DNA of 64,000 bases from a virus: IMG/VR virus record IMGVR_UViG_3300028845_000223, positions 2,547 through 66,546 of that record; one strand, 5' to 3'. Both the position numbers and the translations under genes were made by a program. The number at the start of each line of letters is the position of its first letter. Position 1 is the first letter of the stretch. The notes below the pieces were generated by a model. That model searched no databases. It saw only the letters and a program-made list of their open reading frames with translations, and had not been told where the DNA came from. This document shows, piece by piece, positions 4,784 through 59,272 of the stretch.

Positions 4784-7700
4784 TTACTCGTCCTCTTCAT
4801 CATCTTCTTCGTCGTCCTCATCGTCAATATCAATATCATCTTCATCTTCGTCTAAATCTTCGTCAGACTCTTCAATTTCTCCATCAAGAATTTCAACCTC
4901 TAAATCAAGAGAATCTTCTGCAATTCGTAACAATTCTAAATTTGACATATTTTGAACGGTTTCTAATGCTTCTTCTTCTGATTCAGCAGAAACTTCTATG
5001 ACTATTTCTTGTTGAAGAAATAAATTTACAGGCACGCCATATGTTTTTATATTCATGTTGTTTTTGTTTGCTCCTTTTTTCAGACAATCTGAAACATTAC
5101 ATTTTTTGGATGCTCTGAATTATATACATTCCTAGTTTCATCTTGGTAATGTGCAACCGTTTTCGACATTTCCTTAAGAAATTCTTGGTGAAGATAGATT
5201 TCATTCATCAAATATTGTGAAAGTTTTACCTTAACTGAAAGGTTCGAATAATTGTTTCCAAGTTGTTTTACTGTAAGAAAGATAGCTGCCCCAATAGTGC
5301 CACATGCAGAAGAATTGCACCTAAGATTTTTATCTTTTGTCACAGAGACGAAAAGGTCTCTTTCTTCTAAAGGAAAAAGAGACGAGACAGGGACAACCTG
5401 AAAAGAAAAAGACTTTTGATAACCGTTGCCCAAAGACATTTCAATTTCAAACGAGAGACTGTCCATTTTTATTTTCCTTTCGCGGTTTAGTTGGGGTGAT
5501 GCACAGGTAGGGTATCCACATCCCCAACCTCTGTAAAGAGAGAATCCCAGGGCAATATACTTTGAAACATGACTTGTCCGTGGGTTTAAACTCAAACAGC
5601 GTTTGCCACGCAGAATTTCAAACAAATTCGGGTTTCAAACACAAAAACATCAAACTAAAACTGAAATTAAATTAAATGCTTATTGCCTCGTTGATTTCTC
5701 CTGATGCTTCTTTAATAGTGTATGAGACACACATACGAATTTGTTTTATATCCTTCTTTTTACAAATACTTTGTTTAAAAGTATTTGAAGGAAATAAATC
5801 ATTTATCGGTAAGTCTGTTTTTTCAGGAATGAAAAGATCTCCAAATCTTAACTTTTCTTCTAGTTCATCTCTTATCTTTTGAAGACTATTCAAAAAATAA
5901 TTTTGATAAAGAAATACATTTTCAAACACACACGAATCTATTTTCTCAAAATTAACGTCACTAAAAAACTCCACATATCGGCTGTTAATTGCTTCAGCAT
6001 ACATTTCTTTGACTTGTGGAAGAAGACAAAAGATAACCAAATCTTGGTTTAAGATATCATCTATATTTTCTTCAATATCATCTGGTTCAAATTCAAAATA
6101 ACCTAATTTATTTTTGATACTCCAATGAGCAAATTTTGAATCATATTCTTCACTATAACTTTTGCTATAGCTAAAGACTAATTCTTTTGGATTGCTTATG
6201 ATAGAATCACAAATCTCCAAAAATAAAATGTGAAGTTGTTCAAGTAGCAATTCTTGCGAGTCATACAAAAAAATTTTAGATTCTCCAAAACAGTTAAGAT
6301 TTAATGCCCAAAGTTTAGACATTGTGATTTGACCAATTAAGCCGCGACAACCCTAACAGGTTGTTTGTCTTCAAAATGCCCAGGAGGAGGAAAAGTATTA
6401 TAACTAACTTCTATGTTTTCAAAGAAAGGATTCTTTACTCTAAAAGAGTTTCTTTCAGTCCTATTGAACTGAAAACCAGATTCTTTTAGTTCTTTTTCTA
6501 ACCGCTCCATCAATGTGTTTAAAACAATTCCAGACATAGGCATAGGTATGTCTATCGAACAGTTGAGTTCTATTTCAGAAATTTTTGTTGCATTAACACT
6601 TTCAAGAAATTCTCGGTTAATTTTTTCATTCCAAGTTTTTATATTCTTTTGAAACAATTCCTCAATCAATTTCATTTTATCTTTTAATATAGTTTCTTTT
6701 GTGGTTGAAAGCTGTTCTAGGGTTATTAGTTTCATGTTTTGTTTTCCTTTTCTTTTTTATGAATTCAGTAACATAATATTTTCAACAATTTTTTCGCGAA
6801 GTGTTTCAAGGACTTCCGAAGTTTTTTGACCTTCTTCTAGGTTTGAAAGAAAAGTATAATCATATTCCGAATAGCGATTGCGTAATGCTGGCTTTAATAG
6901 AATGGAAAGGCGTGCTTGAGCTGGCTTGATTTTTATTCTTTCTTTAACTGAATATGCTTTTAATTTCCAAAGATTGTGTTTTGAAGAAAGCTCTTCATAG
7001 TATTTTTGATACTCTTTGAGAAAATTTTCTGTTGTTTTGAGCACCCAATTATGGATTAGAAGAACTGCCAAAAAAAGGCAAAAGAAAACTAAGGCAAGCA
7101 AACTTTTCACAGACGCAAAAACAGCAGAAACGGCAATTAATAATATTAGTAACACTACCCAAAAATTAGATTTATGTGATACCACAAAAAAAGGAACAAA
7201 TTTCTTTCTGTTTTCGTAGTGGTTTTCATAAAATTCCCTTTCGGTAGTAGGTGTTTTAGGTTCTTTTCCTGCTTCATCTAATTTCGGATAAGAGTTTCGA
7301 TAATCAGCTTCAAACGTTTTTACATTTCCAATTGAATCAATGTCTTTTAAATCAATAAATCGATAAGAATCTGTAATTCTAGTTCGAGAAAGTTTTACTT
7401 CTCCATATCCGTTTAACTTAAACACCTGAATTTCAGGTATTGTTTCTTCATTCATCGTTGGTGTCCTTTACCTTTATGATCTGTTTTGCTCGGAGAATAT
7501 CTCTTTGGAGTGTTAAGAGATATTCAAGGTCGGTTGATCTAATCTCCTGATCGGAAAAATTCCCGAACCAAAACTTTAATCTATATGGAAACATATTCCA
7601 GTCTGCAACTTTGTTATTATATTCTTCTTGTGCTAATGCGTTTTTTCCATGAAAATAAACTTCTTGTTTTTCATAATAAATTTCATAAAAACGGCAAGCC

Positions 7701-8848
7701 AAGAAATGGAAAAAGATTAAAATCGATGTAATAACAACTATTAGTGGCATCTTGGCAACTACAGATGAAATAAATGCTATAAACCATATTAAAACAAGAA
7801 AAACAGGAAGGGCACTATTAAGATCAAAAACCAATAATTTGCTTTCTTGATATTCTTTTTTTGGAGGCAGAAAAGGATGAGAAAAAATAATTTGAAGTCC
7901 TGTTAAGTTTTTAATTTCAATATAGTAACCATCCGATGTTTCAATAAGTTTTTCATCAACTGTATATTGTTTCGTTTTGATTTTCATTTAGTCTGCCTTT
8001 TTCAGATGAGCATAATCTTTTTTTGTTTGAACCCAATCGGTTCCTTTTCTTTCAAATTTCCATTGAAAAAGTTGACCTGTTTCACATGGTCCTTCAAAAA
8101 TAACATAAAGCGGAGCAACAAAAACAATTGTTCCCGTATTTATTACTCTGTTTTCTCTTTCAACATCAATAACATTAACCTTGTCACCTTTAATAAACAA
8201 AGTTAAAGTTTTCTTTTGTTTCATATTTTACCACCTGTCTCGAAAATCAATCATAAGACAAGGAACAAATTCTTCTGTCCCAGGATACTTGCGAACCTCT
8301 AACGTATATTCCATTACAAACTTATGATTTTGCACAAACCAATTTCTAACAATGTCCATAACTTCTTCGAGATTTTCAGAAACATTCTCTCCAGCCACTG
8401 CAAAATCGTGAGATGATCGACCCATTGTTTTAACATTGTTAACAACTTGTTGGGTCAACAAGTCTCGAATAAATTTATTGGCGATTTTTACAGCATCAAA
8501 CTTTTCTGGTTGAGGTTTTCGAGAAAATTTCAAAGTTTCGTAATAACTGCCTTTGGTGATTTCAACGTCTGAATCATTCCCCAAAAACTCTTTGAGTTTT
8601 TCTGGTTGCTTGTCAAAATTTTGACTGTGAAAGCTTACTTCTGAATTAAATGCTGTCTTGTTTAATTCAACAACAGTTGGTTCAATAAGTTTGAAATGAA
8701 AAGAGTAATATGGTTTTATTCCTTTTTCTGCAAAATGTCCTAAAATATCTTGAACTTTTCCTTTAAAAAACCCAACCGTGTGGGTAGATTTCCCTTCCGC
8801 ATCGCCTTCTGTTGTGACAAGCCACAGATTCATTTCTGAGTTTTTCAT
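4784..8848 (-). other. Run of hypothetical ORFs (4784-5056 with acidic tail, 5080-5625, 5672-6322, 6337-6735, membrane-protein pair 6757-7455 and 7448-7987, 7988-8224, 8228-8848)
   Basis: Abutting or overlapping co-oriented ORFs; 6757 and 7448 each carry a central two-helix hydrophobic segment. Confidence 0.7.
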
Positions 8849-56391: not shown

Positions 56392-56804
56392 TGAAAACAA
56401 TTTTTAAATTTATAATAATTTTTTGTTTGGCAACGCTTTTCAATTTATTACTTGCCCTTTTTGGACACGTTTATTTTAGATTTGATGTTATTAATTCCTT
56501 TATCGCTTTGATATTATTGGAAATGGTTTTTTTGTTTTATCAAAAAGAAATGGAAACTGTATATCATGGAAAATAATTCAAAAGTAAAAGGATTATATCG
56601 GGTTATTTTTACAGAAAAGTCTACAAAGAAAAAAAACATTATTGATGTTTTTGCTGTTGATAAAACAATGGCAATAGACATTGCAAAAAACGAACTCTTT
56701 GACGGAACAGTTTTTATTGCAAAAGGTTCTAATCTTTCTGTTTCTGTTAAAGAATTAACAATCGACAAAGCTGATTAGTAAAATAAACAAAGGAACAAAA
56801 CACA

Positions 56805-57182
56805 ATGACTCACTAGGTAAAAAATAAACTATATGTCGTAACAAGAGAAGACCTTGGACTTCAATATCAAATTCCACAAGTGGCACACGCTGTGGCAGAA
56901 TTCGCACTAAGAAATAAAATAAAGTTTGAGGAATGGAATTCTGGTGGTTTGGGATCTTTGGTAGTTGTTGCCGCGAAAAACGAAGAACAACTATTTCAAT
57001 TTAAAGCAAAACTAGAAAAAGAAAATCAAATTTATTATGGATTCTATGAACCAGATATTGGTTATAGTTTGACTGCTTTAGCAATAGAACCATCGGATAA
57101 AGTAAAGAAACTTTGTTCGGGAATGCCTTTAGCGGGCAAACTTTCAAAAGAAACACTAAACCTAAAATTAATTTTGACATAG
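56805..57182 (+). CDS. Pth2-like peptidyl-tRNA hydrolase with in-frame TAG at codon 4
   Basis: AAGGA SD, then ATG ACT CAC TAG GTA...; KLYVVTREDL..QYQIPQVAHA, LVVV...E, F.EPDIG..LTALA..P. Confidence 0.75.
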
Positions 57183-57737
57183 TTGATAAAATGATGGAAA
57201 CAGAACAAGCAAAAGATGTTTCTATCCTTCAGCATGGATTACAAGTTTGTGATAAACTTTTTAATTTAATAATTCCTGCACTTAACTCTGATGTTACTGA
57301 AATCAAATTTCCTAATTGGTTTATCGAAAATAAAAGATTTATTCTTGAAAATCTTCCTTCTGAATATATTTTAAGAAAATATGCCATTTTTCATGATGTT
57401 GGAAAACCTTATTGTTTAGAGCACGACGAAGAAGGAAAAAGACATTTTCCAAATCATGCTGAATACTCTTTCCAAAAATATTTGGAGTTGTTTCCAAATG
57501 AAAAAGAGATAGCTGAGTTAATAAGAAACGATATGGTCGTTCATATTTTAAAAGATCATGGAGTTGAAAATTTTTCAAAATAAAAACTGTATAACTCATT
57601 TGGTTGTTGGTCTAGCTGAGATTTACGCTAATGCTGAAATGTTTGGTGGGGTCGAGTCGGAATCTTTTAAGATCAAGTATAAGCAGCTCGAACGAAGAGG
57701 TGGTGCAATTATCTCTGTGCTAAAGCAGAAGAGATAA
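57113..57737 (+). CDS. HD-domain protein, frameshifted near 57575-57583
   Basis: SILQHG, FHDVGK, HFPNHA; the +1 frame continues with LAEIYANAEMFGG...SFKIKYKQ. Confidence 0.65.
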
Positions 57738-57741
57738 CGCG

Positions 57742-57770
57742 TTGACAGCTTCGCGGAGGTTGCTTACACT
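57742..57770 (+). promoter_or_regulatory. Sigma70-type promoter whose predicted +1 is the first base of the suppressor tRNA
   Basis: TTGACA-17 nt-TACACT; tRNA G1 is 7 nt downstream. Confidence 0.8.
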
Positions 57771-57776
57771 TCTCGC

Positions 57777-57848
57777 GTTTCGCTAGTTCAGCGGTAGAAC
57801 GGCGGGCTCTAAACCTGCAAGTCATAGGTTCGATTCCTATGCGGAGCA
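57777..57848 (+). tRNA. Amber suppressor tRNA (CUA anticodon)
   Basis: GTTTCGC/GCGGAGC acceptor, GTTC-AGCGGTA-GAAC, GCGGG-CTCTAAA-CCTGC, ATAGG-TTCGATT-CCTAT, A73. Confidence 0.9.
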
Positions 57849-57877
57849 CAAACAAAAACATAAAAAGGAAAACAAGA

Positions 57878-58792
57878 ATGCAAACAAGACTCTTCTGTGG
57901 TTTGGCGATTGCTGTGTTGGCTGCCGCGTGTGAAACAGTATCTCCTGGGGAAGTTGCCGTTTTAGTTGATACTGGAACAGTTAAAGGCGTATATCCTCCA
58001 GGACTTTATTACGATGGCCCAATGATGGAATTTCACAAACTTTCAACGAGAGCTCAATCATTTGATATGATTGGTGCCCCAACTCAAAATCAAAACCATG
58101 AACGTTCTGGTGAAGGTACTGTTACTGTTTTAACTCGGGACCAATTAAGTGTTGGTCTCGATTGCACGGTTCAATTTCACTTAAACAGCGACCACGCCTT
58201 ACCTGTGTTTATTAAGTTTGGCGAAAACTATGCACAAACAGTTGTTCACACTCCTGTCAGAGCTGCGGTAAGGGATAGCGCAGGTAGGTTTAACGCTCTC
58301 GATCTTTCAAACCGAAGAGAAGAGTTACAACAAACCCTCGAATTAGAAATTCGAAATAAGATTCATACACTGTTGTCTCAGCAAAGAGTTTCAACAAATG
58401 CGATCATCTTGGATTCTGTTTTGATTCGAAATATTGATCTACCAAATTCTCTCGATGAAAGTATTGTGGCATTGCAGCGAGAAAGAATGCAAACGCAACA
58501 GAGACAACAAGCTGCCTTAACCGCGCAGCAAGATGCTGTGCGGCAAATGGCAGACATTCGAGGACAATCAGAACGAAATATTTTAGCAGCGGAAACTGCC
58601 GCTAGAACAAGACGAATCGAATCAGAATCTATTGCCGCGGCAAACAGAACAATTGCCGCTTCACTTACTCCAGAACTTTTGCGTCTTCGAGCAATCGAGG
58701 CACAAAAAGAAGTCTTGGGAAGTAATCAGACTCGAACGGTATTTATGCCTCCAAATATGTCACTTTTCAACCTTGGAAATATCCAACAATAA
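57878..58792 (+). CDS. SPFH/prohibitin (band 7) family lipoprotein
   Basis: LAAAC lipobox, V.PGEVAV, T.DQLSV.LD..VQF, C-terminal coiled coil. Confidence 0.85.
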   Translation: MQTRLFCGLAIAVLAAACETVSPGEVAVLVDTGTVKGVYPPGLYYDGPMMEFHKLSTRAQSFDMIGAPTQNQNHERSGEGTVTVLTRDQLSVGLDCTVQFHLNSDHALPVFIKFGENYAQTVVHTPVRAAVRDSAGRFNALDLSNRREELQQTLELEIRNKIHTLLSQQRVSTNAIILDSVLIRNIDLPNSLDESIVALQRERMQTQQRQQAALTAQQDAVRQMADIRGQSERNILAAETAARTRRIESESIAAANRTIAASLTPELLRLRAIEAQKEVLGSNQTRTVFMPPNMSLFNLGNIQQ

Positions 58793-58811
58793 CAAGAAAG
58801 AAGGAAAGAAA

Positions 58812-59210
58812 ATGGAAAACAACGAAACCCAAACAGTCGAACAAACTCCAGCGCAAACAACCGAAGCGGTTCGCCGCTTTTATATGCGCAGCGGAAAGCG
58901 CACCGTAACCGTCTCCTACAGAAGAACCGAAGGAAACAAATACGAATATGCTTTTTCGGCAAACCGCGTTACAACGGGATCAAATACCGCTGTTGACCTT
59001 TACAACAAGAAACTTGGCAAGGAAATTGCCGAAGGTCGCCTTTCCAGCGGGCGACATTGTTTTCAAATCGAAGTCAAAGACATGAAAATGATCCATGTCG
59101 AAATTGCCCAACAAATGGCTGAAAACACAACCAAAGAAGGAACCAAGGAATTGGTTCCAAAACCAATCAAAACTGTTGCGCGAGACTATCTTGCTTCGCA
59201 CAAAAAGTAA
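58812..59210 (+). CDS. Conserved phage hypothetical protein
   Basis: D.YNKK.G.EIAEGRL motif; AAGGAAAG SD. Confidence 0.6.
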   Translation: MENNETQTVEQTPAQTTEAVRRFYMRSGKRTVTVSYRRTEGNKYEYAFSANRVTTGSNTAVDLYNKKLGKEIAEGRLSSGRHCFQIEVKDMKMIHVEIAQQMAENTTKEGTKELVPKPIKTVARDYLASHKK

Positions 59211-59240
59211 TCGAAAATTACTCGCGGAGCAAACCAAAAA

Positions 59241-59272
59241 GGCTGACTGACAATGTGTTGGTCGGCCTTTTT
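59241..59272 (+). terminator. Intrinsic terminator
   Basis: AAAAA-GGCTGAC...GTCGGCC-TTTTT. Confidence 0.7.

Follow-up and report, generated by a model that had tools for sequence, protein, structure and literature searches.

What purpose might a lone amber-suppressor tRNA gene serve in a phage that keeps the standard genetic code? The question is raised by a tRNA(CUA) gene in a 64,000-nucleotide stretch of DNA (here called the window; positions 2,547 to 66,546 of IMG/VR virus record IMGVR_UViG_3300028845_000223), the source record being a 203,914-bp fragment, with 32% GC, of a large wastewater phage. Suppressor tRNAs recur in standard-code phages with a purpose that is reported as open: the authors of the XacN1 study searched without success for targets of its CUA tRNAs (PMC5852040), and a paper from 2021 described the role of such tRNAs as still open (PMC8386662). 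The orphan tRNA-Sup genes of XacN1 (PMC5852040) and phiKp24 (PMC8386662) are of the same kind as the gene considered here and also sit in tRNA-rich large phages, but the papers describing them report no target, whereas here a conserved target lies next door and offers a testable function. We consider it probable that translation of the neighboring Pth2-like and HD genes is under a lock and that the conserved job of the tRNA(CUA) is to be its key. Expression, charging, suppression, the enzyme activities and the purpose of the gate are matters that we infer from the DNA sequence.

The tRNA(CUA) is, by its predicted structure, a functional-looking phage amber suppressor (feature coordinates are collected in Table 1). 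It matched Rfam model RF00005 over the full length (1-71/71) with 60.1 bits (cut-off 29; E 1.7e-10), and it folds with a 7-bp acceptor stem (G1-C72, two U-G pairs), a 4-bp D stem and a 5-bp anticodon stem with the 7-nt loop CU-CUA-AA (57807-57813), in which U33 and A37 are present. The variable loop has 5 nt, the T loop reads TTCGATT, U8, A14 and G18G19 are in place, the discriminator is A and CCA is not encoded. No initiator hallmarks were seen in the tRNA(CUA), which by anatomy is an ordinary elongator tRNA with an anticodon predicted to pair with UAG. ARAGORN found 17 tRNAs in the window; the other 16 all lie at 8.8-33.5 kb on the minus strand, leaving the tRNA(CUA) as the sole plus-strand tRNA, 24 kb away from the rest. 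The sequence-only reading from which this analysis started had described a complete cloverleaf with this anticodon loop far from the main tRNA cluster, and that description holds. The discriminator A, the short variable loop and a likeness to tRNA-Lys that is only weak do not single out an amino acid, and an exact-match search of IMG/VR with the tRNA(CUA) sequence found nothing. Public contigs from four independent runs, including strains about 3% divergent, span the locus, and among the differences listed none changes the anticodon or the TAG at codon 4 of the Pth2-like gene; the variant listed within the tRNA (57839 A>G) keeps its T-stem pair as G-U. A read error in the anticodon had been named as something that would refute the suppressor assignment, and the lack of any such variant among the differences listed for the four runs gives good, not absolute, support for CUA.

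Table 1. Coordinates of the features discussed (positions of the window) and starts of the Pth2-like gene in phages with an early TAG.
Feature	Position	Strand	Remark
Promoter-like TTAACA-18-TAAAAT	56755..56784	+	10/12 match, upstream of Pth2-like gene; class at chance rate
PTH2-like hydrolase gene	56805..57182	+	stop TAG 57180-57182; back-up TGA 57192-57194
Proposed gating amber UAG	56814..56816	+	codon 4, followed by G
HD phosphohydrolase gene, N-terminal piece	57191..57583	+	Pfam HD 22.2 bits
HD gene, C-terminal piece	57558..57737	+	out of frame: 2-nt difference in A run 57576-57580
Promoter-like TTGACA-17-TACACT	57742..57770	+	GC-rich spacer; 6 nt before tRNA(CUA) G1
tRNA(CUA), putative amber suppressor	57777..57849	+	ARAGORN, 73 nt; anticodon 57809-57811
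SPFH/Band-7 lipoprotein gene	57878..58792	+	Pfam Band_7 5.5e-26; signal peptide ending LAAAC
TTGACA-N16-18-TAnnnT sites, window	11204, 23526, 33932, 45445, 50390	minus	further sites outside window
TTGACA-N16-18-TAnnnT sites, window	50435, 57742	+	hexamer/spacer match
LR756500 Pth2-like start			ATG AAG TAG
LR756501 Pth2-like start			ATG TCG TAG; second TAG at codon 37
LR745206 Pth2-like start			ATG AAC AAT TAG
Serratia phage BF start			ATG ACG CAC TAG; Met-Thr-His as in window
Acinetobacter phage ME3 start			ATG ACT TAG
Tenacibaculum phage pT24 start			ATG AAA TAG
Mycobacteriophage Cane17 start			ATG TAG GTG

The proposed target is a Pth2-like gene that begins ATG ACT CAC TAG GTA AAA. A TAG-gated Pth gene had been placed about 600 nt upstream of the tRNA, and measurement bears this out, with 595 nt between the end of the gene and the downstream tRNA(CUA) and the TAG at codon 4. 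The window protein passes the Pfam cut-off for PTH2 (PF01981; 29.8 bits against a cut-off of 23, residues 8-101), and it profile-matches the solved archaeal/eukaryotic Pth2 structures 2zv3, 1wn2 and 1q7s (family profile against 2zv3, E 2.5e-9). After the amber the next ATG, GTG or TTG comes only at V26, and the conserved first strand, KLYVVTRED, precedes it; with no start between the TAG and V26, this strand needs read-through. We scanned all 204 kb for gated ORFs, defined as an ATG, zero to four sense codons, a stop and then a long frame without a nearby start, and for TAG the Pth2-like gene was the sole result. Two other long TAG read-through candidates look like ordinary adjacent genes with an ATG shortly after the stop. 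The earlier suggestion that the tRNA may switch on TAG-containing genes elsewhere thus gained nothing from the 204 kb, where the Pth2-like gene is the only early-amber ORF without an alternative start. Aligned to 2zv3, the phage family shows a gap in place of the GKGK lysines and Glu throughout at the position of the Asp; we take Lys and Asp to be catalytic in archaeal Pth2. With these lysines absent and Glu in place of Asp, the activity of this phage clade may differ from that of the archaeal enzyme.

Between the Pth2-like gene and the tRNA lies a predicted HD phosphohydrolase gene that is broken into two pieces in the window strain, both of them homologous to a single 183-aa ORF of LR745206. 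The best solved relative of the HD protein is the HD domain of the Aquifex aeolicus tRNA A-adding enzyme (a weak match, E 1e-3), and the domain appears most like that of class II tRNA nucleotidyltransferases; a CCA-adding enzyme (PF01743) was not found in the phage fragment, and a single-protein search with the HD protein also found nothing. Judging from these family assignments, the Pth2-like protein is probably peptidyl- or acyl-tRNA esterase-like and, together with the HD protein, probably cleans or recycles tRNA 3' ends during infection. Sister strains have the two domains in one frame. Contigs from three independent studies (runs X7, X10 and X11) differ from the window by a T inserted after 57171, T>C at 57180 and AA inserted after 57576, and when these three differences are applied to the window they produce one 311-residue Pth2-HD ORF that runs from the amber-gated start to a TAA at 57735-57737, ending 39 nt before the tRNA(CUA). 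Relative to this form the window strain lacks one T and two A, two indels that split the HD part and leave the Pth2-like part intact. A fourth run (X5) shows the window's form at 57576 and, at 57171, both forms in different contigs, so the window indels probably reflect true variation between strains and not a mistake in assembly. Runs in which the locus was present came from nine studies and covered bioreactors, wastewater, activated sludge and freshwater, with wastewater and activated sludge represented by at least eight studies.

The tRNA had also been credited with a consensus promoter of its own, TTGACA-17-TACACT with +1 at G1, and we confirmed the motif. If initiation occurs about 7 nt past the -10 box, the transcript would start on or next to G1. 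Sigma-70-like matches of at least 10/12 occur genome-wide at the chance rate (118 observed vs 121 +/- 11 expected). Sites of the class TTGACA-N16-18-TAnnnT are enriched in intergenic DNA, which holds 11 of the 17 and makes up 7% of the sequence; their spacers are unusually GC-rich for an AT-rich genome, and several precede minus-strand tRNA arrays. A promoter upstream of the tRNA(CUA) is therefore plausible, and because the class is intergenic and stands ahead of tRNA arrays, the tRNA(CUA) probably shares the promoter class of the other phage tRNAs and has at most a short 5' leader. We found no conserved promoter upstream of the tRNA(CUA) genes of relatives, where best-match scores were those of other tRNAs. 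On its other side the tRNA forms the left end of a 1.6-kb island of 45% GC (57600-59250; GC profile 0.42-0.46 vs about 0.30 in the flanks), which contains the putative tRNA promoter, the tRNA(CUA), the SPFH gene and a 132-aa ORF (58812-59210) and is present in divergent strains too. No terminator-like site was found between the tRNA(CUA) and the SPFH gene. The island may be one transcript beginning with the tRNA(CUA), and the SPFH gene is possibly co-transcribed with it; its tie to the proposed mechanism is one of association only. A single-protein search with the SPFH protein found nothing, and its phage-database matches were distant prohibitin-family proteins only.

If the early amber matters, relatives should be informative, and a tblastn search of GenBank phages for homologues of the Pth2-like gene matched huge uncultured phages, the Serratia BF group of jumbo phages (with Erwinia and Yersinia relatives), Acinetobacter phage ME3, Tenacibaculum phage pT24, XacN1 and more than 200 cluster C mycobacteriophages. 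An early TAG is present in seven GenBank phages (BF, ME3, pT24, Cane17 and the three huge uncultured phages LR756500, LR756501 and LR745206), and it is kept in relatives whose proteins are only 28-44% identical to the window protein. For a wider sample we searched IMG/VR loci with a pattern derived only from residues downstream of the amber, seeded with a four-sequence alignment (an alignment of eight sequences was too diverse to serve as seed). The search recovered 48 loci, 40 of which have a TAG at codon 2-5. Among 41 distinct leader contexts the TAG is at codon 3 in 22, at codon 4 in 15, at codon 5 in three and at codon 2 in one, and the base that follows it is a purine in every case (A in 37/41, G in 4/41). 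Classic context studies in E. coli found that a purine after UAG favors suppressor tRNAs. Three features, namely the position at codons 2-5, the purine after UAG and indifference to the inserted residue, fit efficient suppression combined with a cheap failure product.

The amber and the tRNA also go together. Of the 40 amber loci, 28 have a tRNA(CUA) no more than 5 kb away, always on the same strand and usually 0.3-3.6 kb downstream of the Pth2-like gene, vs one of the eight loci without an amber; Fisher's test gives p = 0.004 (0.003 after removal of duplicates), values that are indicative only, as the loci share ancestry. In the GenBank cases the tRNA(CUA) is within 3.6 kb in all except LR745206 and XacN1. 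A pattern search of five source genomes of loci without a nearby tRNA located a tRNA(CUA) 5.7 kb away in one and 128 kb away in another, and found none in two others. LR745206, a complete genome of 635 kb with 59 tRNAs, has retained early ambers in its Pth2-like gene and in its HD gene as well, yet ARAGORN at default settings called no canonical tRNA(CUA) in it; of the comparisons made, this one speaks most against a simple picture of one key and one lock. Its sole suppressor candidate is a 78-nt tRNA-like gene with a CUA anticodon (LR745206.1 507344-507421; L060 1462-1541), which has a long acceptor and a 6-bp D stem and whose best Rfam match, to tRNA-Sec at 28.5 bits, is below the cut-off. 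Suppressor tRNA sequences and discriminator bases are widely diverse across relatives, too diverse to support a common origin of these tRNAs. Given this diversity, the residue inserted is probably not conserved among relatives, which fits the placement of the amber in a variable N-terminal tail and would suit a gate for which the identity of that residue is of no consequence. Among the genomes compared, the arrangement recurs in phages whose hosts belong to three or more phyla.

The HD gene takes part in this arrangement in several ways. An HD homologue flanks the Pth2-like gene in 18/57 loci; it is fused behind the Pth2-like domain in pT24, and in BF and ME3 the two genes overlap at the end of the Pth2-like one. 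Where HD is fused, overlapping or starts just after the Pth2-like gene it has no early amber of its own, whereas in 13 loci, in which HD lies just upstream or is a separate downstream gene, it has one at codons 3-8. The HD gene of BF, annotated as two fragments, contains an internal TAG at codon 47. Together, this TAG and the ambers of stand-alone HD genes place both enzymes under the same stop codon. The Pth-HD-suppressor module put forward by the sequence-only reading is thus recognizable well beyond the window, with HD fused, overlapping or amber-interrupted and the amber and tRNA recurring at the frequencies given above. In XacN1, ORF364 (AP018399.1; L007 2461-3300), annotated as a 279-aa hypothetical protein, is an HD-Pth2 fusion with HD in front, and four codons upstream of the annotated ATG there is an in-frame ATG AAG TAG, which makes ORF364 a candidate target of the XacN1 CUA tRNAs.

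A plausible scenario that would accommodate these observations is as follows. Ribosomes would start at the ATG at 56805, make Met-Thr-His and meet the UAG. Without tRNA(CUA), translation would yield only a three-residue peptide, freed by RF1 or dropped as peptidyl-tRNA, and the enzyme would not be made. With charged tRNA(CUA), any residue could be inserted in the non-conserved N-terminal tail and the PTH2-like protein would be completed; in sister strains the read-through product would be the 311-residue Pth2-HD fusion. Because the tRNA and the enzyme gene each have a promoter-like site of their own, the pair would be expected to behave as an AND gate or leak dampener, akin to engineered suppressor-tRNA feed-forward circuits. 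As to what such a lock would be for, it could time the enzymes acting on tRNA 3' ends or keep them from leaking, tie their dose to suppressor activity, or exert negative feedback on the suppressor itself. The gate may also report whether phage tRNAs have been made and charged before the unit is deployed. Whether the orphan suppressor tRNAs of phages of Pseudomonadota, Bacteroidota, Actinomycetota and uncultured hosts are mainly keys to such a cassette, that is, to a Pth2-like esterase and a CCA-enzyme-type HD phosphohydrolase with an amber two to five codons in, forming a natural AND gate or sensor on a unit for tRNA-3'-end repair or recycling, strikes us as evenly balanced.

TAG-recoded phages with suppressor tRNAs have reportedly been described by Borges et al. 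in 2022, and the tRNA(CUA) could in principle serve a genome-wide or late-gene reassignment of TAG (code 15) in the remaining 44% of the genome, the Pth2-like amber being one recoded codon among others; we regard this as improbable. The opening for it comes from a CheckV completeness of 56% for the 204-kb fragment, which means that other UAG targets may exist, and from the rarity of TAG as a stop (13 of 262 genes, or 5%, in a crude gene call, vs 171 TAA and 78 TGA). Recoded phages do carry CUA tRNAs, and in crAss-like phages and Lak megaphages, as is proposed here, a phage CUA tRNA reads in-frame TAG (PMC7886860, PMC10607447); the difference is that here the code is standard, TAG still terminates and in-frame TAG occurs in one or two linked genes near the start. 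As the sequence-only reading had it, ORFs are intact under code 11, with those of at least 100 aa spanning 92.7% of the 204 kb, and some of them end in TAG. Its proposed comparison of coding density under codes 11 and 15 went against recoding: treating TAG as sense raised the coverage to 94.5%, below the 96.1% of the TGA-as-sense control. Split or adjacent same-frame ORFs showed no TAG-specific excess in the 204-kb fragment, and a search of the fragment for the release-factor domains PF00472 and PF03462 found no RF1 or RF2 gene. Taken together, the code-11 coverage, the 13 TAG-ended genes, the absence of a split-ORF excess and the lack of release-factor domains argue that the fragment is not TAG-recoded, and genome-wide recoding was rejected for the 204 kb since the TAG gain was smaller than the TGA control and no split ORFs were specific to TAG. 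Among the marks of code 15 the fragment has the suppressor tRNA, lacks the many in-frame TAGs and has genes that terminate in TAG. Relatives give the same answer, for in their 10-kb loci the gain in ORF coverage with TAG as sense was no greater than with TGA as sense, the complete LR745206 genome showed no TAG-specific gain, and there was no sign of late-gene TAG recoding in the 204-kb fragment, the loci or LR745206. Random recoding, moreover, would not be expected to put an amber at the same codons 2-5 in 41 leader contexts.

The early TAG might instead go unread, as the end of a mini-ORF of two to four codons that is followed by re-initiation or by peptidyl-tRNA drop-off, with the tRNA working elsewhere, for instance in read-through of host genes. 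Mini-ORFs this short are a classic source of peptidyl-tRNA, as with the lambda bar minigenes, and the codon after the TAG is ATT in 25 and ATT, ATA or ATC in 32 of the 41 contexts; as ATT can act as a weak start codon, some lineages might re-initiate there, and LR745206 keeps its ambers without a canonical tRNA(CUA). Against this, the next codon is GTA in the window and AAT in BF, neither of which is a start, and ATG, which would be far better for re-initiation, is never found there. Internal ambers, at codon 37 of the Pth2-like gene of LR756501 and codon 47 of the HD gene of BF, cannot be bypassed by re-initiation, and the association with tRNA(CUA) is strong, so we think it unlikely that the TAG is simply a mini-ORF stop. 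An equally unlikely variant keeps the gate and makes it a negative feedback, with the Pth2-like and HD enzymes deacylating or trimming the suppressor tRNA by a logic like that of RF2 autoregulation and some other read-through as the real output. Both enzymes plausibly act on tRNA 3' ends, and since 13 genes still end in TAG, an efficient suppressor would carry a cost if left unchecked; yet no other read-through target was found here (nor in PMC5852040), and nothing points to a specificity of the enzymes for tRNA(CUA). In a further alternative the tRNA(CUA) would be a relic, or else a tRNA-like RNA that does not decode and instead acts as a decoy or marks the SPFH mRNA for processing, and the Pth2-like gene beside it would be a pseudogene. 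This idea draws on the broken HD gene of the window strain and on the position of the tRNA at the 5' end of a possible SPFH transcript. It sits badly with the presence of all canonical tertiary positions, with the retention of tRNA and amber across divergent strains, where the one change preserves a pair, and with conservation in phages of at least three host phyla, and we hold it to be very improbable.

Precedents for the favored reading, in which the tRNA(CUA) unlocks the Pth2-like and HD genes, exist in part. The prfB gene, encoding RF2, is autoregulated through an in-frame UGA and a +1 frameshift, with no tRNA involved; it shares with the proposed gate an early in-frame stop that acts as a sensor of the translation apparatus. 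The lambda bar minigenes are likewise very short ORFs linked to Pth biology, but they are not fused to a coding sequence, and, unlike here, neither prfB nor the bar minigenes employ a dedicated suppressor tRNA. The closest parallels are synthetic. Engineered leak dampeners and AND gates likewise combine a nonsense codon with a separately expressed suppressor tRNA (PMC7969014, PMC11669171), and one such circuit works in E. coli and curbs leaky expression (PMC7969014); this cassette would be the natural counterpart. If the favored reading is true, phages possess a natural form of gene-specific control in which a dedicated tRNA reads a stop codon, and synthetic biologists arrived at that logic on their own. 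Iyer et al. list PTH2 as a jumbo-phage gene and do not mention the amber or the tRNA link (PMC7824862), and in the full-text literature searched, the coverage of which is incomplete, we found no published description of an amber-gated phage Pth gene.

The Pth2-like and HD enzymes, linked into one unit, may matter when phages take over translation or counter tRNA-directed host defenses. Phages of Serratia, Acinetobacter, Tenacibaculum and Mycobacterium smegmatis that are available in culture carry the cassette, which brings the idea within reach of reporters and knockouts. Annotation also stands to be corrected: the Pth2-like gene is missing from the annotation of Serratia phage BF and truncated, by annotation from a later start, in Acinetobacter phage ME3 and Tenacibaculum phage pT24, and gene starts are probably annotated too late in XacN1 and the cluster C mycobacteriophages.

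Some loci depart from the common layout. In locus L047 a Pth2-like gene free of early stops is followed, 2-2.7 kb downstream, by two opal-reading tRNA(UCA) genes (7047-7120 and 7662-7736). In locus L046 (about 4970-5030) the Pth2-like gene has no in-frame start after a TGA and is overlapped by an out-of-frame mini-ORF, ATG AAG CGG ATC TAA, which directly follows a tRNA-Gly; this could be another kind of recoding device, or the gene could be dead. Finally, an ORF of about 145-150 aa with the end ...YKDEKG-FYK... stands between the Pth2-like gene and the tRNA(CUA) in loci L001 (6439-6873) and L002 (7915-8367); it is conserved in LR756500 and LR756501 and absent from the window.
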